NCBI RefSeq assembly: GCF_013122565.1
Contig: NZ_CP053258.1
Strand: one strand, 5' to 3'
DNA length: 64,000 nucleotides
Origin: Escherichia coli
Lineage (GTDB): Bacteria > Pseudomonadota > Gammaproteobacteria > Enterobacterales > Enterobacteriaceae
Shown here: positions 5,730-62,337 of the stretch, piece after piece
Numbering within the stretch: the stretch's first letter is position 1
Layout of the letters: every line of letters starts with the position of its first letter
The notes under the pieces: model-generated
The model's database searches: none
What the model was told of the DNA's origin: nothing
The model's input: the letters and a program-made list of their open reading frames with translations, nothing else
Program-made: the position numbers and the translations under genes

Positions 5730-5770
5730 TTATTCTACAGGCCCACAACAAGAGAGCCTGATAGTAACGG

Positions 5771-7054
5771 TTACTCAATGCGATCTTTGACAATAAAGAA
5801 GTAACACAACGCCCCGGTGAACGTCACACAGGCCGCGATAACCAACGCCAGATTAAACGAGTGTGTGGTATCCACTACCCAACCGGTTACGATCGGAGCA
5901 AAGGAAGCAAAAACAAAACTGCCAAAGTTTTGAATCCCGGCGATGGAAGCCACTTTTGTTTCTGACACCATCACCTGCACCAGTCCCCATGCAGACGTTC
6001 CCGCGAAATGCACGCAGAATAGCGCCATTGAGATAAACGCTACCGCCTGAGCTGGCGAGGAAGATTGCACGACCAGCAACGTGCCTAATGCCGACATCAT
6101 CAAACCGCAGACAATAGCCGTTTTACGCGTCTTCGCCAGGTCGTAGCCTTTTTTCGCCAGTCGATCGACAACAATACCGTTTACCCACATCCCGACTGCC
6201 GCCGCGAGGAAAGGAATCGCCGCCACCCAACCGGTTTTCGCCAGACTGAAACCTTGCTCGGCCTGCAAATAACCGGGTAACCACGCGATGTAGAGCCAAC
6301 CGGTATAATTGACGCCAGAGAAACCTAAAATCATCCCCCAGGTTGTCCGATGCTTAAACAGCGCCAGCCACTCGCTAAATTGCAGCTGTGGACGCGGTTT
6401 AACCGGCGCGGAGAGATACGTCCGTTCTTCGTCAGTCAGGACAAACTGCGCCCGGTTGCGATACCACGCGTACCAACAGATCCCAACCAGAATCCCCGCC
6501 ACGCCGATGATGACGAACATCGTCCGCCAGCCCCATGCCAGCTGCATCAATACAAGAGCAGGAGGCGCGATAGCCTGACCGATAACGGTAGATGAGTTAA
6601 AAATCCCCAGCGCCGTGCCGCGTTCTTTTTGTGCATACCAGTCGGTGATCGACTTTACTCCCGCAGGCATAAATGGCGCTTCGCCAATACCCAGACCGAT
6701 ACGCATTAAAATAAAGTGGCTAAAAGAATTAACCATTCCTGTTAATGCCTGCATTAATGACCAGAATATTAAGCCTGCGCCTAAAACTATTCGTGGGCCA
6801 AAGCGGTCTAGCAAAATACCGGAAGGAAGTTGTGAAAAACCATAAGACAGAGAAAATGCAGAAAGCAAAAAACCAAACTCTGTCGCTGATAATCCTAACT
6901 CGCCACGAATCGCTTCGCCTGCCACGCTCAATGACGAACGGTCGAGAAAATTAACGATCCCCGCCATAAATAATAAAACCAGGGTCACTGTCTGAATACG
7001 ACGAATCCGTTGCGGTTTATTACCCGCAACACTGGTTGACACATCAACGTCCAT
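5771..7054 (-). CDS. MFS transporter, anion:cation symporter (ACS) family, sugar-acid type (DgoT/ExuT-like); accessory
   Basis: 427-aa hydrophobic ORF with multiple predicted TM segments and an N-terminal signature (LLFMAGIVNFLDRSSLSVAGEAIRGELGLSATEFGFLLSAFSLSYGFSQLPSGILLDRFGPR) typical of ACS-family sugar-acid transporters. Not part of the K-12 oxyR-argH interval as I recall it. Confidence 0.8.
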   Translation of the reverse strand: MDVDVSTSVAGNKPQRIRRIQTVTLVLLFMAGIVNFLDRSSLSVAGEAIRGELGLSATEFGFLLSAFSLSYGFSQLPSGILLDRFGPRIVLGAGLIFWSLMQALTGMVNSFSHFILMRIGLGIGEAPFMPAGVKSITDWYAQKERGTALGIFNSSTVIGQAIAPPALVLMQLAWGWRTMFVIIGVAGILVGICWYAWYRNRAQFVLTDEERTYLSAPVKPRPQLQFSEWLALFKHRTTWGMILGFSGVNYTGWLYIAWLPGYLQAEQGFSLAKTGWVAAIPFLAAAVGMWVNGIVVDRLAKKGYDLAKTRKTAIVCGLMMSALGTLLVVQSSSPAQAVAFISMALFCVHFAGTSAWGLVQVMVSETKVASIAGIQNFGSFVFASFAPIVTGWVVDTTHSFNLALVIAACVTFTGALCYFFIVKDRIE

Positions 7055-7120
7055 TTTTAGCTCCTTGAGCGGAATTAATCGATTTGATGACTATTCAGAA
7101 AATAATTAAGCGAACCGTTA

Positions 7121-8335
7121 TTACCAGTTCCACAATGTGCCATCTTCCAGTCGTGCGACGGGGAGATACGCCGGGTCATACGGATATTTCGCCGCCAGTT
7201 TCTCATCGAAAGAAATACCCAGCCCCGGTTCATCGCCTGGGTGCATATAACCTTCATCGAAGCGCCAGCTGTGCGGGAAGACTTCAAGCATTTGTTCGGA
7301 ATAGCCCATGTACTCCTGAACGCCAAAGTTTGGCACCCAGAGGTCAAAATGCAGCGCCGCCGCATGACAAACAGGCGATAAATCTGAAGGGCCATGCGAA
7401 CCGGTACGTACCTGATAAAGCGATGCAAAATCGGCAATCCGTCGCATCCCGGTAATGCCGCCTGCATGGGTAATCGTCGTGCGAATATAGTCAATCAGCT
7501 GCTCTTCGATTAACTGCTTGCAGTCCCAGATACTGTTAAACACTTCACCGACCGCAATCGGCGTCACGGTGTGCTGGCGAATCAGACGGAAACATTCCTG
7601 GTTCTCGGCAGGCGTAGGATCTTCCATCCAGAACAGGCGGTAATCCTCAATGCTCTTCCCAAAGCGCGCCGCTTCGATGGGGGTCAGGCGATGGTGCATG
7701 TCATGCAACAGATGTTCGTTAAAACCGAACTTATTACGCACCGCTTCAAATAACTTCGGCGTAAAATCGAGATACTTTTCTGAAGACCACAACTGCTCTT
7801 CTGGCCACAGGCCTTTGGTTGCCGGTTCATACGCCAGTCCTTTGCCCTTCGCCAGGCCATAAGTGGTTTGCATACCCGGTACACCACACTGCACACGAAT
7901 CGCCTTAAAGCCCATGTGCTGGTGCTTTGCATAGTCTTCAAGGACTTCATCAATCGTACGCCCGGTGGTGTGGCAATAAACCATCACGCCTTCACGAGAA
8001 GCACCACCAAGCAGTTGATACAATGGCATATTTGCCGCTTTAGCTTTGATATCCCACAACGCCATATCAATGGCAGAAATGGCTGACATCGTGACGGGGC
8101 CACGTCGCCAGTAAGCACCTTTATAAAAGAATTGCCAGATATCTTCGATACGGCTGGCATCGCGGCCAATTAGTTGTGGACAAAGATGATCTTTCAGATA
8201 AGAAGCGACCGACAATTCGCGACCATTTAACGTGGCATCTCCTAATCCACAAAGTCCGCTTTCAGTGGTTATTTTAAGCGTAACGAAATTACGCCCTGGG
8301 CAAGTAACAAAAACATCCGCAGCAATAATTTTCAT
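7121..8335 (-). CDS. Enolase-superfamily sugar-acid dehydratase, D-mannonate dehydratase (ManD)/RspA-like; accessory
   Basis: The ORF-track entry is 424 aa; the likely start is [43 protein letters not shown], preceded by an AGGAG Shine-Dalgarno, and this N-terminus closely resembles E. coli RspA and ManD-family enzymes. Confidence 0.8.
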
Positions 8336-8739
8336 TATTGCAATCTCCTGTGTTGTAAATAGACGTTTCAAACTTAATTTTACGCCTACTACCATACAAG
8401 AGAGAAAAAGCGATTATTCAACCGTGATCACATTAAAAACAAAAATTTCCATCGAGGAGAAAAAATACCCTCAAAAACCACCTGAATAATTAACCATTAT
8501 CGTTAAAACAACACGTTAAATAATCACATAACAAACTCCATTAATCATTAAAAATGGGCACAGCAATAGAAAATAATTATATTCAATTAATTAAAACATG
8601 CATTGGTTGATGTATTGAAAATATGATTTTTATGGGGGGGAGTGAAGGTAAAGAAGACACAATAATAAAAAGGAATATGACAAATAATGGTTCTGGTTGG
8701 ACGTTAAATTTAAGGTCACCAGAATGATGACAAATTTCT

Positions 8740-8797
8740 GCCTGATGCGGCGTAAACGCCTTATCCGCCTACGAAGTGTCGCACTTTGTAGGCGTGG
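8740..8797. repeat. REP (repetitive extragenic palindromic) element downstream of argH
   Basis: gcctgatgcggcgtaaacgccttatccgcctac followed by an inverted partner; typical E. coli REP consensus. Confidence 0.7.
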
Positions 8798-8833
8798 TAA
8801 ACTCCCCATTTTCAGGGGAGCAATATAAACAAA

Positions 8834-10207
8834 TTACTCTAACCGAGCCTGCGCAAAAGCAATTGCCTGCGCCACCTGCTGCGGTGAGACGCCGCCTTTT
8901 GCCGCACGCTTGTCGAGGCACGATTGTAGCGACAGAATCGGATAGACATCTTCGCCAATCACCTGACTGAATTTCTGCAACTCACTGAGTGGCAGATCTT
9001 CCAGCGGTTTGCCCTGACGAATGGCTTCCACCACCGCTTCACCCACAATATGGTGCGCCTCGCGGAAAGGTACGCCTTTCGCCACCAGGTAATCCGCCAG
9101 TTCGGTGGCGTTGGCGTAACCCTGCTGAGCCGCTTCCTGGCAACGTGGACGTTTCACCTGAATGCCGTCCAGCACCAGCGCCGCCATATGCAGGCAGTCC
9201 AGCCAAGTATCGAGCGCGTCGAACAGACCTTCTTTGTCTTCCTGCATATCTTTGTTGTAAGCCAGCGGCAAACCTTTCAGCGTCATCATCATGCCAGTTA
9301 ACGCGCCCTGCACCCGACCACATTTACCGCGAATCAGCTCCAGCGCATCCGGGTTTTTCTTCTGCGGCATTAATGATGAACCGGAAGTCACGCGGTCAGA
9401 AAGCTCCACAAACCCCGCTTCGCCGGTGTTAAAGAAAATCAGATCTTCAGCAAAACGCGACAGATGCACCATGCCGATAGCGGCAGCAGAAAGCAGTTCC
9501 AGCACGTGGTCACGGTCAGAAACGCTGTCGAGACTGTTACGGGTCGCTGAAGCAAAACCCAGCCAGCCAGCTAACTGTTCACGGTCGATTTCATAAGCCG
9601 TTCCCGCCAGCGCGCCACAGCCTAACGGACTGACATCCAGACGCTTAAGCGCATCCTGCAAACGGCTTTCATCACGCGCCAGCATCTCAACATAGGCCAG
9701 GCACCAGTGCGCGAACGTCACCGGCTGGGCGCGTTGCAGGTGAGTGTAACCTGGCATGACCGCGTCCTGATTGTTTTGTGCGGTTTCCACCAGCGCCGAT
9801 TGCAGCTGCCGGTTAGCCGTCAGCAACTCGCCAACGGTATCTTTGCACCACAGTTTCAGGTCTGTCGCTACCTGATCATTACGACTACGCCCGGTATGCA
9901 GCTTTTTGCCTAACTGGCCCACTTTGTCGATCAGTTTGCCTTCCACCCAGCTATGAATATCTTCGGCGTCGCTTTCGAGGATTTGTTGTGGCCTGGCGCG
10001 AACATCTTCCAGCAGCACGTTCAGCGCCTCTTCCAGTTGCGCCTGCTCTTCTGCGGTTAACACGCCGACCGTTACCAGGGCTTTGGACCAGGCCACAGAG
10101 CCAACAATATCCTGCTCCGCCAGACGGTAATCAAAGCGCAGTGAGTCGTTGAATTGTTTGAACCGTTGATCTGCTGCCTGGGTAAAACGCCCGCCCCAAA
10201 GTGCCAT
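8834..10207 (-). CDS. argH: Argininosuccinate lyase
   Basis: 457-aa [44 protein letters not shown]..., fumarate-lyase family. Confidence 0.95.
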
Positions 10208-13362: not shown

Positions 13363-13475
13363 ACGTAGGCCGGATAAGGCGCTCGCGCCGCATCCGGCAC
13401 TGTTGCCAAACGCCAGCGCTGCAATAATGTCGGATGCGATGCTTGCGCATCTTATCCGACCTACGCCTTTGGTGT
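13363..13475. repeat. REP/BIME element cluster between argE and ppc
   Basis: aggccggataaggcgctcgcgccgcatccggcac ... gtcggatgcgatgcttgcgcatcttatccgacctacgcc; paired REP palindromes. Confidence 0.7.
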
Positions 13476-18280: not shown

Positions 18281-18428
18281 ATGACCTATGTATCGCGTCT
18301 GGCGCTATTTGCCGGATGCGATACTGGCACAATGTTTACATCTCACTTCCATCAGGCCACACTTTTCAGGTGGCCTTTTTTCATAATGCCAGTTACTGTT
18401 TTCCCGTCTACATACCTAAGGGAATAAC

Positions 18429-28814: not shown

Positions 28815-28822
28815 CCTACTCC

Positions 28823-28847
28823 AAACTCCCGGCTTGTCCGGGAGTTT
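28823..28847 (+). terminator. Probable intrinsic terminator of gldA
   Basis: Hairpin aaactcccgg-cttgt-ccgggagttt immediately after the gldA stop. Confidence 0.55.
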
Positions 28848-28849
28848 GA

Positions 28850-28965
28850 ACGCAAAATTGCCTGATGCGCTACGCTTATCAGGCCTACGCAATCTCTGCA
28901 ATATATTGAATTTGCGTGCTTTTTAGGCCAGATAAGGCGTTCACGCCGCATCCGGCACTCTGTGC
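28850..28965. repeat. REP/BIME element between gldA and yijF
   Basis: gcctgatgcgctacgcttatcaggcctacg ... ggccagataaggcgttcacgccgcatccggcac; nearly the same unit recurs near 48330 and 62130. Confidence 0.75.
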
Positions 28966-34210: not shown

Positions 34211-34542
34211 GGAAAAGCCGAAGGGCGTCAACCGAAAAATGACCACTGATGGTGAGGAAATATCAGGGAAGTTGAAATTTTTTCATCTGAAGAAAAAAAC
34301 AGGGATACCAATGTTCAGTATGAGGTGAATATTGGGAAAATGCTGACGTTATTAATTTTATATTTATTTAAATGATGATTCATTCTGATTTATTTACTTA
34401 AAAAATGAATTATATTTTCAAATAAAACAAAAAGATACTTTAAGCCTCTCCGGCCTCCTCGCTTTTAATTTTGAACCACTTCAAACAAATAATAAATTCC
34501 TAAGAATTAAGTTGCAGACAAATTATACATCCCTCACGATAA

Positions 34543-34580
34543 GTAGAACGTTCTAGTAGAACGTTCTACTTATATAAATA
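34543..34580 (+). promoter_or_regulatory. Tandem perfect 12-bp palindromes (TAGAACGTTCTA x2) overlapping a -10-like TATAAAT; putative LacI-type operator and promoter for the EIICB operon
   Basis: gtagaacgttctag-tagaacgttctac at about 34543..34569, 55 to 80 bp upstream of the EIICB start, followed by tatataaat. The palindrome has the central CG and AACGTT core typical of LacI/GalR-family operators. Confidence 0.55.
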
Positions 34581-34623
34581 ATCGTTCTTGCGCAGTCATC
34601 TGCGCTATTCGGGGGAAATCAGC

Positions 34624-36123
34624 ATGGGTCTGATATCGAGTGTCGTAAAATCACTTTCTAAACTGTCGATGATTGGTCGCGCGCTGATGCTGCCAATTTC
34701 GCTTCTGCCTGCCGCCGGGTTGTTGCTGGCGTTCGGCGATAAATTCCACATGCCGTTGATGATGAATGCCGGCGGTATCATTTTTGATAACTTGCCGATG
34801 CTTTTTGCTATCGGTTCTGCCGTGGGACTGGCTTCAGAATCGGGTATTGCGGCGCTATCCGCAGCTGTATCCGTCTTTGTCACTAATATCACCATCGGTA
34901 CTGTCCTTGGCATCACACCAGAGATGGCCGGGCAAGGCGGTAAATATGCGATGGTGGTGGGGATCCCAACGCTGCAAATGGGCGTCTTCGGCGGCCTGAT
35001 ATGCGGGGTTCTGGCGGCGTGGTGTTACAACCGTTTTCATACCATGCAATTACCAGAATTCCTTGGCTTTTTCTCCGGCAAACGCTTCGTGGCTATCGCG
35101 ACGGCTTTTCTTTCCTTCATCCTTGGCTTGTTACTGCCCTATGTCTGGCAACATATTCAGTCGGGAATCGATGCCCTATCAGTTATCGTCAATGGTGATA
35201 ACCAGGCGGCATCGACCTTTATTTTTGGTGTGACAGAACGTGCGCTCATTCCGCTTGGCCTGCACCACATCTGGTATCCATCGTTCTGGTACTCTTTTGG
35301 TGATTACACCACCCAGGCAGGCCAAATGATCCACGGTGACCAAACAATTTGGTTCAAAATGCTGGAAGAAGGTGTGAAATCGTTCAGTAGCGACAGCTAC
35401 CATAACGCGGGTAAGTTTTTACAGGGCGAGTTCCCGCTCATGCTGTTCGCGCTGCCTGCGGCGTGTCTGGCGATGTACCATGAAGCACACACCAAAAATA
35501 AGAAAATTGCCGCCGGTATTCTGTTCTCTGCCGCATTAACCTGTTTCCTGACAGGTATTACAGAACCCGTTGAATTTACCTTTATTTTCGTGGCACCGGT
35601 ACTGTACGTATTCAACGCGATAATGGCTGGCCTCTCCTATATGGCGATGTATCTGCTCCATGCCCATATTGCAAAATCCTTCTCGGCAGGGCTTATCGAT
35701 TATATTTCGTTTGGCATCCTGCCATCATTTAACGGCTACGAAACCAACTTCCTGAGTGCCATTATTGTTGGCGTACCGATGGCGATTATCTATTACTTCA
35801 CTTTCCGCTTTGTTATTCGCCGTTTTGATGTGAAAACACCGGGTCGAGCCGAAAGCACCGTATCCGCTAACGATAAAACCGATGATGAACTGGCTACGGA
35901 AATTATCAGTCTGCTGGGCGGCCAACAAAATATCTCTTCCGTCGCATCCTGCATAACACGCCTGCGTCTGGAAGTGGCAGATAAGGATGTAGTTGATAAA
36001 GATGGACTGAACAATGTCGGTGCTCGTGGTGTGGTTTTTGTCGGCGATAACGGCATTCAGGTGATTTTTGGCGCACGTGCACAATTTATCGCGCAAACCA
36101 TGTCGACGATGATTGGCAAATAG
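34624..36123 (+). CDS. PTS glucose-family EIICB component, sugar specificity unknown; accessory
   Basis: About 499 aa from MGLISSVVKSLSKLSMIGRALMLPISLLPAAGLLLAFGD, preceded by a GGGGGA Shine-Dalgarno. A PtsG/MalX-like EIIC domain is followed by a C-terminal EIIB domain with the phosphorylatable Cys motif SCITRLRLEV. The ORF-track start at 34588 is probably too far upstream. No EIIA gene is adjacent. Confidence 0.85.
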   Translation: MGLISSVVKSLSKLSMIGRALMLPISLLPAAGLLLAFGDKFHMPLMMNAGGIIFDNLPMLFAIGSAVGLASESGIAALSAAVSVFVTNITIGTVLGITPEMAGQGGKYAMVVGIPTLQMGVFGGLICGVLAAWCYNRFHTMQLPEFLGFFSGKRFVAIATAFLSFILGLLLPYVWQHIQSGIDALSVIVNGDNQAASTFIFGVTERALIPLGLHHIWYPSFWYSFGDYTTQAGQMIHGDQTIWFKMLEEGVKSFSSDSYHNAGKFLQGEFPLMLFALPAACLAMYHEAHTKNKKIAAGILFSAALTCFLTGITEPVEFTFIFVAPVLYVFNAIMAGLSYMAMYLLHAHIAKSFSAGLIDYISFGILPSFNGYETNFLSAIIVGVPMAIIYYFTFRFVIRRFDVKTPGRAESTVSANDKTDDELATEIISLLGGQQNISSVASCITRLRLEVADKDVVDKDGLNNVGARGVVFVGDNGIQVIFGARAQFIAQTMSTMIGK

Positions 36124-36196
36124 TCATAAGATTACGCTTTGTTGGAGGTTCTGGTCCCTGACTGGAACCTTCGTACTTATTGTTCAGGGAGTGAAG

Positions 36197-37213
36197 TTGA
36201 AGAAAGTCAGCATAATTGATGTTGCCAAAAGCGCAGGAGTCTCGGTCTCTACTGTGTCGCTGGTCCTGCGCCAGAAAGGCAAAATTTCCGAGGCAACCAT
36301 CGAGAAAGTTCATGCTGCCATTACTGAGCTTGGCTACGTGCATAATGTTGCCGCCGCCAATTTACGCTCCAACACTTCAAATCTTATCGGTCTGATTTTA
36401 CGTGATTTTAGCGATAGCTTTTCCATCAAAGTGATGGCAAGTATTGTTCAGGAACTGGAAGCACAAGGATATATGGTTTTCCTCGGGCAACCACAGAACG
36501 AGCATGAACATCTTGAACGCTGTTTGCTTTCCTTCAAGCAACAAGGTGTTGCCGGAGTGATTTATCTGGCTTCCGATGCGCAGCGTGAAACCTTACCCGC
36601 GCTGATTCGCCAGTGCCCTCTTCCTCTTGTCGTCGCCTCACAATCCCCCATCAAAGATGAATGCAATCTGGTATTGCGCGACAACCAGCAGGCGGCAAGC
36701 CTTGCCACGCGTTATTTAATTGAGCGTGGACATCGTTACATTGCCTACCTCGGCGGCAGAGAAAGCGATCTTATCCGCCAACAGCGACTGGTGGGTTTTC
36801 GCCAGACCCTGGCAAAATTCGGTATTGCCAGTCGTGACGAGTTCACGCCAGCCTGTGACGATGATACATACGCCGCCAGCATGGCCACGCGCCAGTTGCT
36901 GGAGAATAACAATGCCATCACCGCCCTACTCTGCCATTCGCCCGAGGCCATGATTGGCGGTATCAACGGCATACATCAGGTGGGGCGCACCGTCGGGAGA
37001 GACATCTTTCTGACCCAGCAGGTGGCGCTAATTGGTTTTGAAGATATGCTGCACATCAATCTGACCTCGCCCGTTTTCACCTATGTCTCTTCCGCCAGTG
37101 AAGAAACCGGACGCCAGGCTGCTAATCTAATAATCCGCAAGTTAAAAGACCCGGAGCTGCAAATTCAAAGAATTGCGCTTTCCGGGCAACTGGTAGTGCG
37201 GGAATCGGCGTAA
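36197..37213 (+). CDS. LacI-family transcriptional regulator; accessory
   Basis: The N-terminal HTH (KKVSIIDVAKSAGVSVSTVSLVLRQKGKIS) is the LacI/GalR signature, followed by a periplasmic-binding-protein-like sugar-binding domain. The likely start is TTG or GTG at 36191..36197 after AGGGAG, giving about 338 aa; the ORF-track start at 36113 overlaps the EIICB gene. Confidence 0.8.
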   Translation: MKKVSIIDVAKSAGVSVSTVSLVLRQKGKISEATIEKVHAAITELGYVHNVAAANLRSNTSNLIGLILRDFSDSFSIKVMASIVQELEAQGYMVFLGQPQNEHEHLERCLLSFKQQGVAGVIYLASDAQRETLPALIRQCPLPLVVASQSPIKDECNLVLRDNQQAASLATRYLIERGHRYIAYLGGRESDLIRQQRLVGFRQTLAKFGIASRDEFTPACDDDTYAASMATRQLLENNNAITALLCHSPEAMIGGINGIHQVGRTVGRDIFLTQQVALIGFEDMLHINLTSPVFTYVSSASEETGRQAANLIIRKLKDPELQIQRIALSGQLVVRESA

Positions 37214-37336
37214 TTATTTCTGCCAGTCTCCGTCTTTAGCCGGCGGTCATCGCCACAACTGCACTGATGGATATGGTATTCTTTCGAGTATCTTTGCGGG
37301 CACTAACGCCAGGAGTATCGCCATGAGAATGGCGCG

Positions 37337-38818
37337 ATGAACACAGGGAATTTCGAGTCGATACAAATCATACTCGACGCGCAAGAGTGGCGTAGCCTGC
37401 CGCTGCATCTGCGTCTGTATCACGCTTTTCGCCAATTGGTGATTTCCGGCGCGTTGTCTGATGGCGCAAAGCTGCCGTCCGCTCGCGCACTGGCCCAGCA
37501 ACTTGGTCTTTCCAGAGATACCGTCGAAAATGCCTATTCCCAGCTTCAGCGCGACGGTTTTATGACCCGCAGGCAGGGAGCCGGGAGTTTCGCCAGCCGC
37601 CAGGGGATCCCGCAAATTCAGGGGCAGCACGCTCAGCCCCCCTCGCCCGGACAAGCACCGGCATTAACCGCCCGCTGGCAGCCGATTGCCGATCGCGCCG
37701 TCTCTTTCGATGCCCGCCAGATGCAGACCTTTACGCTTGGCCTGCCGGAAACGCGAAACTTCCCGCTAAACATTTGGCAGAACTTTTCCCGCCAGATCCA
37801 ACGTGAGCAGGCGCATACGCTGATGTTAAATAGCGATCCGCAGGGCGAGCCGGAGCTGCGCCAGCAAATTGCGCATTACCTTAATTTTGAACGCGGCGCG
37901 AAGGTAGATGCAGAGCAGATTGTGATTGTCAGCGGCGCACGGCAGGCGTTCTGGCTGTGCGGGCAACTGCTGGCAGAGGCCGGGCAATCAGTGGCGATGG
38001 AAAATCCAGGCTATCCCGGCGCGCGTCAGGCGTTTTCTGCCGCACAGCTTAATCTTCTTCCCGTTGAAGTGGATGACGCCGGGATCCGGGTGGATAAACT
38101 GCCGCCCGCACCGCTGGTTTACGTCACGCCGTCGCACCAGTTTCCTTCTGGTCATTTGCTCACGCTGGCGCGCCGTCACGCCCTGATTGCCTGGGCACAG
38201 GCGCACAATGCGTGGATTATTGAAGACGACTACGACAGCGAATTTCACTACACCAGCGCGCCCGTCGCCTGTCTGCAAGGGTTAGACTGCGAGCAACGCA
38301 CCCTGTATGTCGGCACTTTCAGCAAAACGCTCTATCCTGGTTTGCGCATTGGTTATCTGGTGGTGCCTGCCTCGCTGGCTGCGCACTTTGCCGCCGCACG
38401 TAATTTGCTTGATGGCGCAACGCCTGCGTTATCCCAACTGACGCTGGCGCGATTTATCGAGTCCGGTCATTTTGCCGCCCATATTCGCACCATGCGCAAT
38501 ATGTACGCGGTGCGACAGGCGAGCCTTGCAGAGGCTATTCATCAGCACTTAAGTGAATGGGTCACGCCAGTGGTGACATCCGGTGGATTACAAATGCCCT
38601 GCTGGCTGCATGAAGATGTTGATGAGCAACAGACGCTGAACGCGGCGCGCCGCGCCGGGTTAAATATCGCCGGGATGCGCCAGTTCTGGCTGACGCACCC
38701 CGCGCCCGCGGGCTGGCTGCTGGGATTCGCCGCCTTTACCCCCTACGAAATTGAGCAGGGAGTCAAGCGTCTGCGGGCTGCATTATGCGCTGAAAACGTG
38801 CGCCCAGCCGGGTCATAA
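37337..38818 (+). CDS. MocR/GabR-family transcriptional regulator (GntR HTH fused to a PLP aminotransferase-like domain); accessory
   Basis: 493 aa. The N-terminal winged HTH (LYHAFRQLVISGALSDGAKLPSARALAQQLGLSRDTVENAYSQLQRDGF) is followed by a long aminotransferase class I/II-like domain. Confidence 0.8.
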   Translation: MNTGNFESIQIILDAQEWRSLPLHLRLYHAFRQLVISGALSDGAKLPSARALAQQLGLSRDTVENAYSQLQRDGFMTRRQGAGSFASRQGIPQIQGQHAQPPSPGQAPALTARWQPIADRAVSFDARQMQTFTLGLPETRNFPLNIWQNFSRQIQREQAHTLMLNSDPQGEPELRQQIAHYLNFERGAKVDAEQIVIVSGARQAFWLCGQLLAEAGQSVAMENPGYPGARQAFSAAQLNLLPVEVDDAGIRVDKLPPAPLVYVTPSHQFPSGHLLTLARRHALIAWAQAHNAWIIEDDYDSEFHYTSAPVACLQGLDCEQRTLYVGTFSKTLYPGLRIGYLVVPASLAAHFAAARNLLDGATPALSQLTLARFIESGHFAAHIRTMRNMYAVRQASLAEAIHQHLSEWVTPVVTSGGLQMPCWLHEDVDEQQTLNAARRAGLNIAGMRQFWLTHPAPAGWLLGFAAFTPYEIEQGVKRLRAALCAENVRPAGS

Positions 38819-39869
38819 TCTCATACGGGATGGTGTCGCAGGCAGCCGCAACCTCTTCCAGCGTCTGGCCTGTGCCAATAAACTCCACCTTATCGCCCGC
38901 CGTCGGCGTGACGGCGCTGGCATCGACCATAAAGCTGTCCATACACACCCGCCCCAACACCGGTAACCGCACCCCGCGCCAGCATACGCCCGCCGGAGGA
39001 CGCATATTTCGCGGAACGCCATCCGCGTAACCCGCGGATATCGTGGCGATACGCAGCGGACGCGTGGCGGTAACCGTGCTGCCGTAGCCAACTGGCGTTC
39101 CGGCCGGAACATCCTGCACGCGCAGTATGGTCAGCGTCAGCGTAAAGACCGGTTTTAACGGCCTGGAAAACCACGGCTGGGTGACGCCAAACAGCGCAAT
39201 CCCCGGACGGCAGAGATCTTCCCGCCAGCCCGAGTGCAAAAACATCCCGCAGGAGTTCGCCAGCGAAAATCGGCTGCTGGGGAAAACCGTTTTTGCCTGC
39301 TGAAGTCGCGCGTGTTGCGCCATATTTAACGCATGATCCGGCCTGTCGGCGTTCGCCAGATGGCTGATGATATAATCCGGCGCAGGCCAGTTACGCTCAC
39401 GAAAAATCGCCGCCAGACGCATCAGTTGTTGCGACATCACGCCCAGCCGCGACATCCCGGAATCGAGCTGAATCATCACCGCACGCCGCTGCTGGCGCGT
39501 TTCCAGTAACGTAAGCCACGCCATCACCTGGTCTACGGAATTGAGCAATGGCGTGATCTGCTGCGCGTAACAAAATGCCATCGCCTCCGGCATAACCCCA
39601 TTAAGCACCACCACCCGCGCATCAGCGGGCAAGCATTTACGCAGCGCCACACCTTCAGAAAGCTGCGCGACAAAAAAGATCCGGCAGTTCGCCGCATACA
39701 GGGCGGGAGCAATCGCCTCCGCCCCCAGACCATAGGCATTCGCCTTCAACACCGCGCCACATTGCGCACGGGCAGCATGGCGGGCCAGGGTGCGATAATT
39801 TTCGACAATGGCGGCGAGATTGACGCACATAACGCCGCACGCCGCCTGAATTTCAGCAAGAGTTATCAT
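38763..39869 (-). CDS. Alanine racemase-family PLP enzyme (fold type III); accessory
   Basis: 368 aa. Contains the PLP-lysine motif [11 protein letters not shown] near the N-terminus and an Alr-like C-terminal beta domain. Overlaps the MocR 3' end by about 56 bp (convergent) and the downstream SHMT-like gene by 4 bp. Confidence 0.8.
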
Positions 39870-41104
39870 TGATAAGGCAACGGATAGCGGTTGGTTAGTT
39901 GTATTACTTTTTGCTCAATATCGGCGCAAATGTCTGCAATATCTGACGCGTTAATGGCCAGAATGATTTCACTTATCCAGTCAGCAATAAGCGCAAAGTC
40001 ATCCGCCTGCATCCCACGCGTGGTGCAGGCCGCGCTGCCAATACGAACGCCGGAGGTAATCGACGGCGGCTGCGGATCGCCCGGCAGGGTGTTTTTATTA
40101 ACCGTGATCCCCGCCAGTTCGAGAAAATACTCTACCTGTGCGCCGGTTAACCCCTGCGGGCGCAGGTCGATAATCCCCAGATGGCAATCGGTGCCGCCCG
40201 TTAACAGCGTCAGACCGCGCTGCGCCAGTTGCTGGCACATCGCCTGCGCATTGTCGATGACCTGCCCGGCATAACGTTTAAATTCCGGTTGTAATGCCTC
40301 GCCAAGCGCCACCGCTTTCGCCGCGATAACGTGCATCAACGGCCCGCCCTGCAAACCGGGAAAGATGGCGCTGTCGATTTTTTTCGCAAGCCGGGCGTCG
40401 TTGGTGAGGATCATGCCGCCGCGCGGCCCGCGCAACGTTTTATGCGTGGTGGTGGTGACCACATCAGCATACGCCAGCGGCGAAGGGAAACAGCCGCCCG
40501 CCACCAGCCCGGCAAAGTGCGCCATATCCACCAGCAAAATGGCGCCCACGGCATCGGCAATGCGGCGAAAACGGGCAAAATCATAGCGGCGTGGATAAGC
40601 CGATCCTCCGGCAATAATCAACCGTGGGCGCTCACGCAGCGCGATCATCTCGACTTCATCCATATCAATCAGGCCACTATGGGCATCGACGCCATAGTGA
40701 AAAGCGTTAAACCATTTGCCAGATTGATTGACCGGCGAACCGTGCGTGAGATGCCCGCCGCATTGCAGGCTCATGCCAAGAATTTTGTCGCCGGGTTTCA
40801 GCAACGCCAGATAGACCGCCTGATTCGCCTGGCTGCCGGAGTGAGGCTGCACATTGACGTAACGTGCGCCAAAGAGTTGCTGGGCGCGGGTTATCGCCAG
40901 CATCTCAACCTCATCAATAAACTTACAGCCGCCGTAGTAGCGATGCTGGTAATAACCTTCGGCGTATTTATTGGTTAACACCGACCCCTGCGCCGCGAGA
41001 ACAGCGGGGCTTACGAAATTCTCCGAGGCAATCAGTTCCAGCGACTACTGCTGGCGCTGTTGCTCCTGGTTAATCAATGCAAAAAGTGGATCGTTATTTA
41101 TCAT
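39866..41104 (-). pseudogene. Serine hydroxymethyltransferase (GlyA)-like PLP enzyme with an in-frame amber stop at codon 20
   Basis: Reverse-strand translation from ATG at about 41104 gives [50 protein letters not shown]..., then continues through the SHMT signatures HSGSQAN and [16 protein letters not shown]. The TAG is at about 41045..41047 where GlyA has Glu. The ORF-track entry is only the 371-aa reinitiation product from GTG at 40981. Confidence 0.75.
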
Positions 41105-41337
41105 GCGCTTCCCCCGAAAATTCATCATGCGATGATTTTCGCAGGGAAAACGTCGCCCGCACCCTGCCACTTTTTAGAATGAGCGCAGACCACCTATGTC
41201 GTTTTACTTAAAAGAAGAGGGAAGAAGGCTCCAGGCATCTCCATATGCGATTCTGGTTGGTAATACATCATATTCCAGCTGCTCTTATCTGCCTACGTTA
41301 TTGCATAGGCAGAATAAGGCAGCCTCAATACGTACTT

Positions 41338-42891
41338 TTACTTGATATATTTCACGCGCATACCGTTGATCTGTTCATCCGTGATGGTGTTACCCGCTTT
41401 GAAGTAATCAACCACGGCGTGATAAACGTAATAACCGCCCGTTGTGTTACGCGCTTTCCCTTCGGTAAAGGCGGTAAAACCATCTCCACCATCAGCAAGG
41501 AAACTCTGGGTGGCAATAGAATAAACTGTCGCATCTTCAATGGGTTTGCCATTCAGAGTCAGTGTGATTACCCGCTGACCAACCGGCTTGCTGCTGTCGT
41601 ACTTCATTTCCAGGCCTTTCGATACCTGTAAAACGCCATTACTTAAACTTGCGCCGTGTTCCATCAAACTGCGTAATTGTTTCCCTGTGAGATCCATCGT
41701 CACCAGTTCGTTGGGGAACGGGAAGGTACTGATGACGCCGCCCATCGTAATCGCCCCTGCGGGGATCTCATTGCGAATACCGCCAGAGTTGGTTAAGGCT
41801 ATTTGGGTGTTTTTACCCGCCGCTACCAGTAAAGCGTCAGCCGCCAGGTTCCCGAGGGAAGCCGATTCACCATAGGCACGTTTTAATTCAACCGGCGATT
41901 GCGCCACCGTTTGTTGCACCACTTCATCAAGCTTTTTATTCCAGCCGTCGATCACCTGTTTTGTTTGCGGATCGGGCTTCCACTCGTCGGCGTAAATGGT
42001 TTTCAGCTCGAAGTTTTTCACCGTAAAATCATGCGGCTTCTCTTTGTAGTCGAGGACCAGTTTGCCCACATCAATCCCGCCGCTGTCAGTGGAGAGGATG
42101 AGCGTATTGCCGACTTTAATCGGTTCCGGCGTACCCACATGTGCATGTCCGGTGATCAAAATATCCAGCCCTTTCACCTGACTTGCCGTCTGAATATCTT
42201 TATCCAGTGCGCGACGCACATCGGTCCCTCCCATACTGGACTGGCGGGCCGGAACACCTTCATGGATCAGGGCGACGGTCAAATCAACCTTGCCTTTAAG
42301 TTCATCGATATAACGTTGTAGCCATTTAATTTCATCGCGCGCTTCAATACCCACGCGCGTGGCAGCAGATACCGTATCGTTGAAAGCAAATACTCCGTGC
42401 AAACCTATAACGCCTATTTTCACGCCGTCTTTTTCGATGATGGTATATGGCTTATCCCAGAATGATTTACTGCTGTTCTGATAAAAAACATTGCCCTGCA
42501 CAATAGGGAATTTTGCCTGACTCAACTGTAATAATGTGTTGTCCCAGCCGTGGTCAAATTCATGGTTGCCTATCGTGACGGCATCAAACGGCATAGTATT
42601 CATAATATCGATAATAGCCTTACCTTTGGTCAGGCTGCTGATATATGGCCCGGTAAAATAATCACCCGCATCAAAAAACCATGTCGCTTTATTTTTTGCT
42701 TTTTCTTGCTTAACCAGCGTAGTGATATTTGCCCAGCCGCCAATATCCCGTTTACCGTCAGCGATCCACGGCACTTTATAAGGCTCGACATGCGCATGGA
42801 GGTCGTTGGTATAAATGATGGTGACATCTTTGGCGCAAGCCCAGAACGGCAATGTTAATGCGATACCCGCAGCAAGTATTTTAATTTTCAT
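41338..42891 (-). CDS. Secreted metallophosphoesterase / 5'-nucleotidase-family protein (UshA/CpdB-like); accessory
   Basis: 517 aa with an N-terminal signal peptide ([20 protein letters not shown]) and calcineurin-like phosphoesterase motifs ([36 protein letters not shown]), followed by a C-terminal 5'-nucleotidase-type domain. Confidence 0.8.
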
Positions 42892-43023
42892 AAATAGTCC
42901 CTTTCAGTGATTTAAAGGATTGCTACATTACGTTCTGAAAGAGTTATTTATGTGAGAGTAATCACATCCGCAGGGGATAGTTGCCGGACAAAATCAACGA
43001 CCTTGTGAAATCGTTGGTGATAT

Positions 43024-44154
43024 ATGTCAACTCTGTTTACGATTAATGCCTGCAAGTCGTTTGGTTGCCGTAATTTAGGGCAACCAACATCGACAGATTA
43101 CAGCTGGCCAGACTATCGACTGGGTTATCCGGCACTGCACTGTCGGGCATGTGGAAGTTACCCGCCGTTGTTTGACGAACAGCAATTTCGTGACTGGTTG
43201 TCAGTTCACTTATCTACTTTTGCAACTGAGAAAGGTCATTTCTGCCCGGTATGTTATGGCACAAAGACGATTTGTTATGGCCACAATCCACAGGGGTCGC
43301 AACGCATTCAATGTCGTAACTGCAAAAAAGTCTGGACACCTAAACAATATCAGAAAGAAATAACGCCTCCTGAAATAATCGAAACGGTTGCTCTTCTGGT
43401 GCCATTTCAGGGAGCCAGCAATGGGCAGAAACTGTATGTTTTAATCAGTTTTGATGCTCTTCGCGGTAATATTCTTCATCTTTCTACTAATTACACGCAG
43501 CATCAGGCTGGAGAAAGTCTGCATTATCGATACAGAGGAAATGCAGAACCAGAGTTACACGAGAGTAATATTGTACAACGCGTTGATATGCGCGAAGCAC
43601 AATTTCTACGCCGCAGTCAGTTTGATGAAATTCAGTATGGCAGCGCAGCGCTCAAACGCAATGCTAAAGGTATTATTCTGCGTCCGGTTATCACTGCACA
43701 CGGGCATTTCAGAGTACTGAATATTTTATTCCCTACAGTAAAAACACATGTAATTTCACACGAGTGTTTTTTAAGAGGTGCCATTATTACGGCATGGGCT
43801 GATCTGTTTCGCCAACAGCAAGGTGAAATTTGGTTTATTGAAGAGGAAATAGCTGACTATACCGATAATATGCCCTGGAGTTTTCAGGGAACAACATATC
43901 ACGGCTGGTGGAAAAATCAGTGGCAACTTTGGGGTCAGGGCAAAAATCGTAAAATGGTATGTGCATTAACAGGCGGAAATAACAGCAAAGCTGAAATGCT
44001 CTCTTTCGCAACCAGCAGACATTTTATCGACTGGCTACATAAACAAGCAGTATTTACTCACAGCACCCCGCTTTCCGCAGGGCGCGTTACGCAAATACTG
44101 CTTTCTCTGGCTCAGGATTACAACAACTGCGCCAGCCGGTTGATATCCGACTGA
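43024..44154 (+). CDS. Cys-rich protein with two N-terminal zinc-ribbon motifs (IS1 InsA-like finger), rest unknown; accessory
   Basis: 376 aa. Motifs C-x5-C...HC-x2-C and CPVC...GSQRIQCRNCKKVW; the latter resembles the IS1 InsA zinc-finger region (from memory). The last 12 codons overlap the metL 3' end on the opposite strand. Confidence 0.6.
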   Translation: MSTLFTINACKSFGCRNLGQPTSTDYSWPDYRLGYPALHCRACGSYPPLFDEQQFRDWLSVHLSTFATEKGHFCPVCYGTKTICYGHNPQGSQRIQCRNCKKVWTPKQYQKEITPPEIIETVALLVPFQGASNGQKLYVLISFDALRGNILHLSTNYTQHQAGESLHYRYRGNAEPELHESNIVQRVDMREAQFLRRSQFDEIQYGSAALKRNAKGIILRPVITAHGHFRVLNILFPTVKTHVISHECFLRGAIITAWADLFRQQQGEIWFIEEEIADYTDNMPWSFQGTTYHGWWKNQWQLWGQGKNRKMVCALTGGNNSKAEMLSFATSRHFIDWLHKQAVFTHSTPLSAGRVTQILLSLAQDYNNCASRLISD

Positions 44155-48324: not shown

Positions 48325-48440
48325 CGGAGTGGAATCGCCTGATGCGCTACGCTTATCAGGCCTACGTCATATTGCAATTTATTGAATTTGCACGAACTTG
48401 TAGGCCGGATAAGGCGTTCACGCCGCATCCGGCATAAACA
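48325..48440. repeat. REP/BIME element downstream of metJ
   Basis: gcctgatgcgctacgcttatcaggcctacg ... gtaggccggataaggcgttcacgccgcatccggcat. Confidence 0.75.
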
Positions 48441-49415: not shown

Positions 49416-51773
<2,358 letters not shown>

Positions 51774-57054: not shown

Positions 57055-57540
57055 ATGAAATACGATACTTCCGAGCTTTGTGACATCTATCAAGAAGATG
57101 TTAACGTCGTGGAACCGCTGTTCTCCAACTTTGGCGGACGGGCGTCGTTTGGCGGACAAATAATCACGGTAAAATGTTTCGAGGACAACGGGTTGCTGTA
57201 CGATCTGCTCGAACAGAATGGCCGTGGTCGTGTTCTTGTCGTCGATGGCGGTGGTTCTGTTCGTCGCGCACTGGTCGATGCTGAACTGGCGAGTCTGGCA
57301 GTACAAAATGAATGGGAAGGTCTGGTCATTTACGGCGCGGTGCGTCAGGTAGATGACCTGGAAGAGCTGGATATCGGCATCCAGGCGATGGCGGCAATTC
57401 CGGTTGGTGCCGCTGGCGAAGGCATTGGCGAAAGCGATGTCCGCGTCAATTTTGGCGGTGTTACCTTCTTCTCCGGCGACCATCTTTATGCCGACAATAC
57501 CGGGATTATTCTTTCAGAAGATCCGCTGGATATTGAATAA
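57055..57540 (+). CDS. rraA: Ribonuclease E inhibitor RraA
   Basis: 161-aa [70 protein letters not shown]... Confidence 0.95.
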
Positions 57541-57556
57541 GTATCTGCCATGCGTT

Positions 57557-57583
57557 AAAAGGGGAATTAAATTCCCCTTTTTT
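57557..57583 (+). terminator. Intrinsic terminator after rraA
   Basis: aaaaggggaat-taa-attccccttttttat: perfect stem followed by a T-run. Confidence 0.65.
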
Positions 57584-57587
57584 ATAC

Positions 57588-58274
57588 ATGGACGTATTCA
57601 TGCAGAATATTATTCTTTTATTTATATATTTATCACTTATAGTCGTTAACCATTTCCGCTACAAATTTCTTTTATCTGGCAACGCGGGTGAAATGATTTT
57701 ATATTTTGCTAACGTATTTTTTAACCCACTTGCCGTATCATTTATTATCGCCACAATCATCTGTATAACGATAAAAAAAAGAAGCAGCCGTAGCTTTATT
57801 CGCGGCACTTGTTGGTTAATGGGATTATTTCTTATCTATAGCAGCTATACGGTGTGGGAACGACACAGCACATGGGATTATACTTTCCCGGGGCCAGGTA
57901 TCACCGTCACGGTTCCGAGCAAACAGTGGGTTACCAATATAGTAGAACAAGGCCCCACCCTGGTGACTCGGGATGCCCATGCTATTTTAGCTATTGTTGC
58001 CTTCTCACAAAATGAACTCGGTGTGCATTCAATCGAGGAGCTTACCGCGACTCAAAACGGAACTGCAGAAATGCATATTTGTGATGTTCAGGGATTTACC
58101 TGTGTTTATCAGGAAGAACTGCAAACAATGAGTGATGGTAAAACAAGACATGCTATTTTCATGACTCTACTGGATAACACTAATTTGATACAACTGGTCG
58201 CAGCCATCGACCAAGATTATTTGGACGAATATCAAGAAGAAGTAATGAAAATGATGCTTTCTGCCCGTCAATGA
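57588..58274 (+). CDS. Hypothetical membrane-anchored protein, paralog 1 (three predicted N-terminal TM segments plus a roughly 140-aa probably periplasmic domain); accessory
   Basis: AT-rich ORF of 224 to 228 aa; the start is either ATG 57588 (MDVFMQNI) or ATG 57600 (MQNIILLF). N-terminal hydrophobic segments with K/R-rich loops are followed by a soluble domain with a conserved Cys pair (C-x7-C, HICDVQGFTCVYQ). No recognisable family. Confidence 0.6.
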   Translation: MDVFMQNIILLFIYLSLIVVNHFRYKFLLSGNAGEMILYFANVFFNPLAVSFIIATIICITIKKRSSRSFIRGTCWLMGLFLIYSSYTVWERHSTWDYTFPGPGITVTVPSKQWVTNIVEQGPTLVTRDAHAILAIVAFSQNELGVHSIEELTATQNGTAEMHICDVQGFTCVYQEELQTMSDGKTRHAIFMTLLDNTNLIQLVAAIDQDYLDEYQEEVMKMMLSARQ

Positions 58275-58306
58275 TCTGATGTGCATATTAATAATAAGGG
58301 ATTGAT

Positions 58307-59023
58307 ATGAGATACGTTATCTTATTAATACTATGGTTAATAACTGCTTTTCTTAGTCATCTTCAGCACAGCAACCTACTATCTGGAGATCCTGGCATGG
58401 TTGGCGAGTATATCGGTTCAGTATTTCTGGGGCCGTTATTACTTCCCGTGCTTGTGTCAGGTATTCTGTGCGCATTCACTAAAAAAACGCGTAACTGCGC
58501 CAGTTTTACTCGCGGGTGCTGCTGGGTATTGGGAGTCCTGCTTTTATCCAACGTCGGCAATACGTTTCGTATGTTCACCCCGTGGCAATATACGTTTGAG
58601 AATGCCGCTATTTCCGTGACTGTCCCGAACCGACACTGGAATACGGTTTCCATTCGTACAGATAAAACCATTGATATAAGAAGTGAAGATAATAGCGTCT
58701 TTATTTCTGCTTTCCGCCTGCCCGCAGGACGTAGCGCCGATGACTCGCTGGAAGAGTTAAAGAAGATGCAGCGAGACAATCTCAAGGATCAATACAATGA
58801 AGAAACCTTCCAGTTTCATGATTGTCATGCCAAACATTTCACCTGTAAGTATCAGGATGTGTTGATAAATTTTGATGGTCAGCAGAAGAGAACCATCAGT
58901 GTTTATCTTGAAGACACCCCCAGAGCTGTGGGGATCATTGCATTAATGGAGCCAGATACGGTAGATAAATATCGCCAACAGGCGATGGAGATTATGTTGT
59001 CTGCTAAAAATGCAGTGAAGTAA
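58307..59023 (+). CDS. Hypothetical membrane-anchored protein, paralog 2; accessory
   Basis: 238-aa ORF MRYVILLILWLITAFLSHLQHSNLLSGDPGMVGEYIGSVF... Shares with paralog 1 the motifs LLSG-x-G, F-x-RG-x-CW, W-x-YTF, I(S/T)VTVP, FTC-x-YQ and M-x-MLSA (about 30% identity by eye). Confidence 0.6.
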   Translation: MRYVILLILWLITAFLSHLQHSNLLSGDPGMVGEYIGSVFLGPLLLPVLVSGILCAFTKKTRNCASFTRGCCWVLGVLLLSNVGNTFRMFTPWQYTFENAAISVTVPNRHWNTVSIRTDKTIDIRSEDNSVFISAFRLPAGRSADDSLEELKKMQRDNLKDQYNEETFQFHDCHAKHFTCKYQDVLINFDGQQKRTISVYLEDTPRAVGIIALMEPDTVDKYRQQAMEIMLSAKNAVK

Positions 59024-59060
59024 AAATAAGGCGCCTTGCGGCGCCTCTGCGTGGAAGAGA

Positions 59061-62108
<3,048 letters not shown>

Positions 62109-62109
62109 T

Positions 62110-62250
62110 GTCAGGCACCTGAATCGATTGCCTGATGCTGATCGCCTGATGCGACGCTTACGCGTCTTATCAGGCCTACGAGCCAATGCCATTTTGTGTA
62201 GGCGGGATAAGGCGTTCACGCCGCATCCGGCATCACGCAGACTCTGAAAC
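62110..62250. repeat. REP/BIME element cluster between glpK and glpX
   Basis: gcctgatgctgatcgcctgatgcgacgcttacgcgtcttatcaggcctacg ... gtaggcgggataaggcgttcacgccgcatccggcat. Confidence 0.75.
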
Positions 62251-62337
62251 CGTGCGGGGGCAACCCCGCACACATCAATAATCCCGCCCTTCCCCTGTGC
62301 TACACTTCGCGCCATTCCTTACTGCTTAGAGTTTGCT

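Follow-up and report, generated by a model that had tools for sequence, protein, structure and literature searches.

REPs are short, non-coding, imperfectly palindromic repeats of 30-40 nt, with a GTAG/CTAC tetranucleotide conserved at the foot, that occur in hundreds of copies dispersed over each genome, and REP/BIME elements have been known since 1984. BIME-1 elements, also called RIB or RIP elements, were reportedly described in 1993, by Boccard and Prentki and by Oppenheim et al., and gyrase-binding BIME-2 elements reportedly by Espeli and Boccard in 1997, whereas the BIME-2 and atypical BIME classes are said to belong to the Gilson/Bachellier classification. In the classification summarized by Ton-Hoang et al., a BIME-1 consists of a single pair of y and z1 units separated by L, a long and conserved linker in which an IHF site is often present, a BIME-2 consists of y and z2 units with a short S linker in tandem copies, and atypical BIMEs are chimeric between these two classes (PMC3333891). 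The functions assigned to the family include protection of upstream mRNA from 3' exonucleases, attenuation of transcription, binding of IHF to L linkers and of gyrase to BIME-2, and mobilization by TnpA-REP (PMC3333891, PMC6379681).

We investigated the REP content of a 64,000-nucleotide stretch of an E. coli chromosome (hereafter, the window), which extends from btuB to glpX in the orientation opposite to that of K-12 MG1655 (4164014 down to 4113917) and is ~98% identical to it. Three segments of the window, blocks A, B and C, have no K-12 counterpart; these are presumably the three accessory blocks distinguished in an earlier, sequence-only reading of the same DNA, which had reported near-identical BIMEs at three intergenic sites and none flanking the blocks. 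Our analysis shows that the reported elements are genuine, that the inventory was incomplete, and that five of seven REP-bearing sites, including one at the edge of an accessory block, differ between the window and K-12.

The REP units were identified with a covariance model built from 11 aligned units (9 from the window and 2 from K-12) on the standard REP hairpin and run with the filters off. The classical long REP consensus, with 3 mismatches allowed, recovered only the Y unit downstream of glpK (0 matches in 100 shuffles) and missed the short Y and the Z forms, so half-motif searches and the covariance model were used instead. The RefSeq record of K-12 contains no annotated REP features in this region, and therefore K-12 was scanned with the covariance model as well. 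In the window, the scan yielded 9 intact REP units at 5 intergenic sites and 1 head remnant (Table 1), and all nine intact units were extragenic when mapped onto the K-12 gene table. The three sites of the sequence-only reading were thus an undercount, to which the scan added the argE-ppc pair, the argH edge of block A and the eptC-yijO remnant. The E-values at the three original sites ranged from 2e-9 to 4e-14, but the nine units had trained the model, so that these scores are not independent evidence; the informative part is the absence of further matches, with no other convincing REP in the window, including the interiors of blocks B and C.

Table 1. REP units, associated features and accessory blocks of the window, with the state of each REP-bearing site in the window and in K-12
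Site	Feature	Position	Strand	Score (bits)	Description	Site in window	Site in K-12
oxyS-argH	Block A	5730-8833			MFS transporter and ManD-type dehydratase		
argH edge	REP and truncated partner	8740-8797	+	46.8	3' of argH, at the argH-proximal edge of block A; unit at ~8740-8772 GCCTGATGCGGCGTAAACGCCTTATCCGCCTAC, 15-nt linker, truncated inverted tail GTAGGCGTGG ending at 8797	REP within block A	none
argE-ppc	Z unit of head-to-head pair (pair, ~13365-13464)	~13365-13398	-	60.8		1 pair	3 tandem pairs
argE-ppc	Long variant of head-to-head pair	~13429-13464	+	50.5			
eptC-yijO	REP head remnant	18311-18321	+	13.1 (not significant)	GCCGGATGCGA	head remnant only	full BIME
gldA-yijF	Y unit	28860-28888	+	45.4	short 29-nt form GCCTGATGCGCTACGCTTATCAGGCCTAC, 44 nt past the gldA stop	predicted BIME-1	predicted BIME-1
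gldA-yijF	L linker	28889-28922			34 nt		
gldA-yijF	IHF-like core in L linker	28899-28911	-		ATTCAATATATTG		
gldA-yijF	Z unit	28923-28956	-	54.2	slightly decayed, tail TTAGGCCAGATAAGG		
metF-metL	Block B	34278-44116			PTS IIBC component, MalI-like and MocR-like regulators; further ORFs: alanine racemase-like, SHMT-like, 5'-nucleotidase, 376-aa ORF	no REP, block B present	single REP
metJ-yiiX	Y unit	48337-48365	+	43.2	short form, identical to the gldA Y unit, 29 nt past the metJ stop	predicted BIME-1	predicted BIME-1
metJ-yiiX	L linker	48366-48399			34 nt		
metJ-yiiX	IHF-like core in L linker	48375-48387	-		ATTCAATAAATTG		
metJ-yiiX	Z unit	48400-48433	-	60.3			
rraA-zapB	Block C	57539-59064			two ORFs		
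glpK-glpX	Partial duplicated REP head	62130-62143	+		GCCTGATGC TGATC, with the head itself at 62130-62138; precedes the full Y unit, in a segment missing from K-12	full BIME	one degenerate unit
glpK-glpX	Y unit	62144-62179	+	51.5	long 36-nt form, 35 nt past the glpK stop		
glpK-glpX	Linker	62180-62197			18 nt, tail-to-tail, GAGCCAATGCCATTTTGT; no IHF-like core		
glpK-glpX	Z unit	62198-62231	-	56.8	33/34 identical to the metJ Z unit		

Several weaker candidates were rejected. Two weak model matches (874-907 and 50889-50945) were not REP-like on inspection and apparently occurred by chance, and the segments AGGCCCAC and GCCTGATAG at the left edge of block A (5730-5770), which resemble REP by eye, had no covariance-model match. 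Another weak match (1850-1877) is short and perfectly palindromic (CATGCCGGATGC ATCA GCATCCGGCATG) and has only the GCCGGATGC head in common with REP; it maps by K-12 coordinates to the gap between the convergent genes yijD and trmA, its model score is not significant, and it could represent either a bidirectional terminator or what is left of a head-to-head REP pair.

The elements downstream of gldA, metJ and glpK are almost certainly BIMEs built from units of the E. coli REP (palindromic unit) family. The Y units of the gldA and metJ sites are identical, and the three Z units are 0-2 bases off GCCGGATGCGGCGTGAACGCCTTATCCGGCCTAC. An alignment of all 11 units gives a single consensus of 36 columns, in which 9 units keep the CTAC foot, and 96.9% of the stem cells form standard pairs, compared to 30-42% when the partner is slid; double-sided changes are found at four pairs, one of which, T-A versus G-C, distinguishes Y from Z units. 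The predicted RNA folds are more stable than those of shuffled sequences (z from -3.8 to -5.4). Queries containing the BIMEs matched at least 131,582 and at least 165,063 places, in 5,425 of the 5,426 complete E. coli genomes, with medians of at least 21 and at least 31 places per genome. We found neither of the two results that would speak against membership, a single-copy sequence or one devoid of the GTAG/CTAC foot and hairpin.

All three repeats that had been reported at about 28850, 48330 and 62130 are therefore real, with the right coordinates and far beyond chance; they follow gldA, metJ and glpK as described (stop codons end at 28815, 48307 and 62108, with the gene order of K-12), and the designation as ordinary E. 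coli BIMEs is correct by sequence, hairpin and copy number. The statement that the units are near-identical holds for the REP arms and for the gldA and metJ pair, but not for the glpK element as a whole, which is 70-72% identical overall to the gldA or metJ element, and the glpK Y unit, whose inner stem is 7 nt longer, disagrees with the consensus string that had been offered, with the variable positions (c/a)(t/c).

Judged by sequence, the gldA-yijF and metJ-yiiX elements appear to be single-copy BIME-1 (RIB/RIP) elements, with a tentative z1 label assigned by the linker context. Each of the two (28860-28956 and 48337-48433) is composed of Y (+) followed by Z (-), in a single copy per locus, and the whole elements are 87% identical, with 34-nt linkers that are alike and match the consensus of the Rfam family ES036, which itself corresponds to the L linker and a GTAGGCC tail. 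At each of its 34 positions, the metJ Z unit agrees with GCCGGATGCGGCGTGAACGCCTTATCCGGCCTACGA, the REP consensus published for E. coli (PMC12306157). ATTCAANNNNTTG is present in both L linkers and deviates from the IHF core WATCAANNNNTTR by a single mismatch; given that there are 53 one-mismatch matches to this core in the window, the IHF-like motif is weak evidence when taken by itself. K-12 has an identical metJ-yiiX element, whereas the gldA-yijF element differs from its K-12 counterpart by two substitutions and a 1-nt deletion, with one substitution falling in the Z unit and the deletion just beyond its tail.

The glpK-glpX element is of a different kind. Its Y unit is an exact match to the classical Stern consensus, with a stem 7 nt longer than in the other two elements (GCGACGCTTACGCGTC versus GCGCTACGC), and its linker is 16 nt shorter than, and unrelated to, L. 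The 18-nt non-L linker, the lack of an IHF-like core and the long Y unit depart from the features of BIME-1. The short linker is that of a BIME-2, yet there is only a single pair, and the Z subtype is the one found in the predicted BIME-1 copies. By its sequence, the element would be neither BIME-1 nor a clean BIME-2, and is probably best called an atypical BIME. At least three structural alleles exist at the glpK-glpX site, and the allele of the window is present in 447 of 5,426 genomes, so that the glpK BIME is itself accessory. This polymorphism provides a natural test of the effect of a BIME on expression within the glpFKX operon.

The same covariance model detected 13 units at five sites in the syntenic region of K-12; across both strains, there are seven REP-bearing sites, five of which differ in presence or copy number, and only the gldA-yijF and metJ-yiiX sites retain the same arrangement (Table 1). 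The elements turn over quickly between strains, in agreement with the published observation that strains differ in the number of BIMEs at a given locus (PMC3333891) and with the title of a work cited in PMC1525189 (its reference 17), in which BIMEs are called a major source of intergenic polymorphism. At eptC-yijO, where K-12 has a complete two-unit BIME (4148429-4148512), ~73 nt are missing in the window, and the BIME-less allele is present in further strains too. Separately, we observed that this gap runs almost exactly from within one REP head to just beyond the other, which looks like excision of a whole hairpin. The region is thus a compact illustration of fast BIME turnover between strains.

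The accessory blocks themselves show several further features. Block B is rare, with 7 of the 5,426 complete E. coli genomes carrying its metF junction; a nested segment (37250-41250), encoding the MocR-like regulator and the alanine racemase-like and SHMT-like proteins, occurs in 3 genomes only, at ~95% identity, and is missing from the shorter block B of strain UTME-7. At the metL end of block B, the 376-aa ORF (43024-44154, +) shares ~37 nt with the 3' end of metL; Pfam and PADLOC gave no match to it, and an IS1-type zinc-binding N-terminus matched only weakly, below the threshold. Block C was found in 657 of 5,426 genomes, and its two ORFs (57588-58274, +, 228 aa, and 58307-59023, +, 238 aa) are labeled hypothetical proteins in RefSeq; neither matches anything in Pfam or PADLOC, and the first has no match in NCBIfam either. 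The accessory blocks diverge more from the database strains than the flanking core does: the best database match is 96.5% for the edge of block A (8400-9000) and 97.4% for block C (57400-59200), compared to ~99% for the core at gldA. This higher divergence suggests either a lineage that is scarce among the complete genomes or older block alleles.

The sequence-only reading held that no REP flanks the accessory blocks, that the BIMEs mark core intergenic regions and that REP-mediated insertion of the blocks is accordingly disfavored. The first of these statements is borne out at the junctions of blocks B and C in the window and fails at block A, where the argH-edge REP lies inside the block, 36-93 bp from the argH junction (8833/8834), which is the very result that the reading itself had named as its refutation. 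The REP was kept in 4 of 4 sampled carriers of block A, and the argH junction region together with the REP was found in 1717 of 5426 genomes, with all others aligning only from 8834 onward; thus, this REP occurs only with block A, and K-12 has an unrelated 54-bp spacer without a REP at argH. The second statement does not stand either, given that an accessory block includes the argH REP and that the glpK BIME is confined to a minority of genomes. As for the third, its premise is wrong at block A, although we found no positive evidence for REP-mediated insertion of the blocks, which remains unsupported. The elements matter little in themselves, and the value of these results is corrective: the first inventory was incomplete, and the notion that BIMEs mark the core and avoid island junctions should not guide the interpretation of the three accessory blocks.

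The opposite proposal, that REPs served as hot spots of recombination or insertion that brought in the blocks, via REP-targeting insertion sequences, TnpA-REP cleavage or REP-REP recombination, is quite unlikely in this region. REPs are targets of IS1397 and IS621 as well as recombination sites, and the loops of E. coli that are specific to a strain show an association with BIMEs (PMC1525189), which makes an association between REPs and blocks unsurprising here. The presence of a REP with a truncated partner at the argH-proximal edge of block A, and only with the block, fits this proposal, but the REP is on one side of the block only, and the truncated unit ends 36 nt from the breakpoint. Similarly, the K-12 allele of the block B site includes a REP (4132346-4132381), but it is located mid-way along the 200-bp stretch whose place is taken by block B, at distances of 78 and 87 nt from the breakpoints, so that breakpoints and REP ends do not coincide at any of these junctions; block C has no REP in the window or in the K-12 allele. 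Furthermore, no insertion sequence or flanking direct repeats were seen at the variable sites, and at the sites of blocks A and B, one segment appears to have been exchanged for an unrelated one, in contrast to a clean insertion. Three sites are, in any case, too few for statistics.

A broader version of this idea would make REP/BIME sites preferred places of remodeling, at which ongoing turnover through TnpA-REP or REP recombination also gives rise to gains and losses of accessory genes and alters operon polarity. The 5 of 7 REP-bearing spacers that differ, the 2 of 3 block sites that carry a REP in one allele and, for operon polarity, the BIME between glpK and glpX in 8% of strains can be cited as its basis; we consider it unlikely.

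With respect to function, the three BIMEs are located between co-directional genes, 29-44 nt past the upstream stop codon, with Y first and the inverted Z second on the sense strand. A simple scan detected no canonical intrinsic terminator and no promoter in the gldA-yijF, metJ-yiiX and glpK-glpX spacers, and the promoter and terminator scans over four spacers returned nothing useful; in the absence of a canonical terminator in the three spacers, read-through into yijF, yiiX and glpX is plausible. By analogy with published work on the family, TnpA-REP (RAYT) would spread and reshuffle such elements on single-stranded DNA. Once transcribed in the 3' end of the upstream gene, the hairpins could slow 3'-to-5' exonucleases or attenuate transcription, and could thereby tune how strongly gldA, metJ and glpK are expressed compared with yijF, yiiX and glpX, while the L linker might recruit IHF.

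It is very unlikely that the elements are instead small-RNA genes, of the Rfam family ES036/CssrF or naRNA4-like, and not passive repeats. The ES036 model does exceed its gathering score at 48358-48399 (-), with 39.6 versus 37.6 bits, and falls just under it at 28881-28923 (-), with 34.8 bits, but its consensus is merely the L linker of BIME-1 with the GTAGGCC tail and would hence match any BIME-1, and the strand of the matches is antisense to gldA and metJ. The matches to naRNA4, a REP-derived family of nucleoid-associated RNA, are far under the threshold (32.7 versus 59.5 bits). According to one study, nearly 80% of the REPs in E. coli undergo transcription (PMC4550694); the gldA-yijF and metJ-yiiX spacers showed no promoter-like site, and a literature search with the term 'ES036' returned grant numbers only. 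ES036 (RF02751), although annotated as an sRNA, should match BIME-1 copies in general, and the hits here may represent repeat DNA and not separate sRNA genes.

Finally, the view that the elements are gene-specific terminator or attenuator hairpins, alike by convergence rather than as copies of a mobile repeat, can point to the stable fold just 3' of a gene in each case and to the further hairpins that flank the elements (for example, 28820-28850 and 62252-62275), but it is next to impossible to maintain, being already ruled out by the tens of copies per genome and the gain and loss of whole units between strains, in addition to which the identity exceeds what a shared fold needs (Y identical between loci, Z at 32-34 of 34 positions), no T-run follows any element, and the terminator scan was empty.

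The REP/BIME identity of the elements, which we favor, is already known biology. The consensus of RF02751 (ES036/CssrF) coincides with the L linker of BIME-1 and the adjoining REP tail, and naRNA4 (RF02564) is derived from a REP cluster; the difference is that both are RNA-family labels placed on repeat DNA. No TnpA-REP (RAYT) gene was found within the 64-kb window, including a scan of the block ORFs; in K-12, this gene is yafM, located elsewhere on the chromosome. With REPIN/RAYT systems, the elements share the inverted REP doublets, the conserved GTAG foot, the intergenic location and the variability of number and linker between strains (PMC3333891, PMC2817692), the difference being that the window has no RAYT gene of its own and the link to the transposase comes from the literature. 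The similarity to BIME-2 and atypical BIMEs lies in the long Y unit and short tail-to-tail linker at glpK-glpX and in the head-to-head pair at argE-ppc, amplified three times in tandem in K-12; both vary between strains, as the descriptions of these classes say. However, the glpK-glpX element has one pair instead of a tandem array, its Z subtype is that of the two elements with an L linker, and a partial head is present in addition. As in BIME-1 (RIB/RIP), the gldA and metJ elements have one Y and an inverted Z, tail to tail, with a 34-nt L linker, at the 3' end of a transcription unit, and, apart from the slightly decayed Z tail of the gldA copy, nothing of substance sets them apart from that class.
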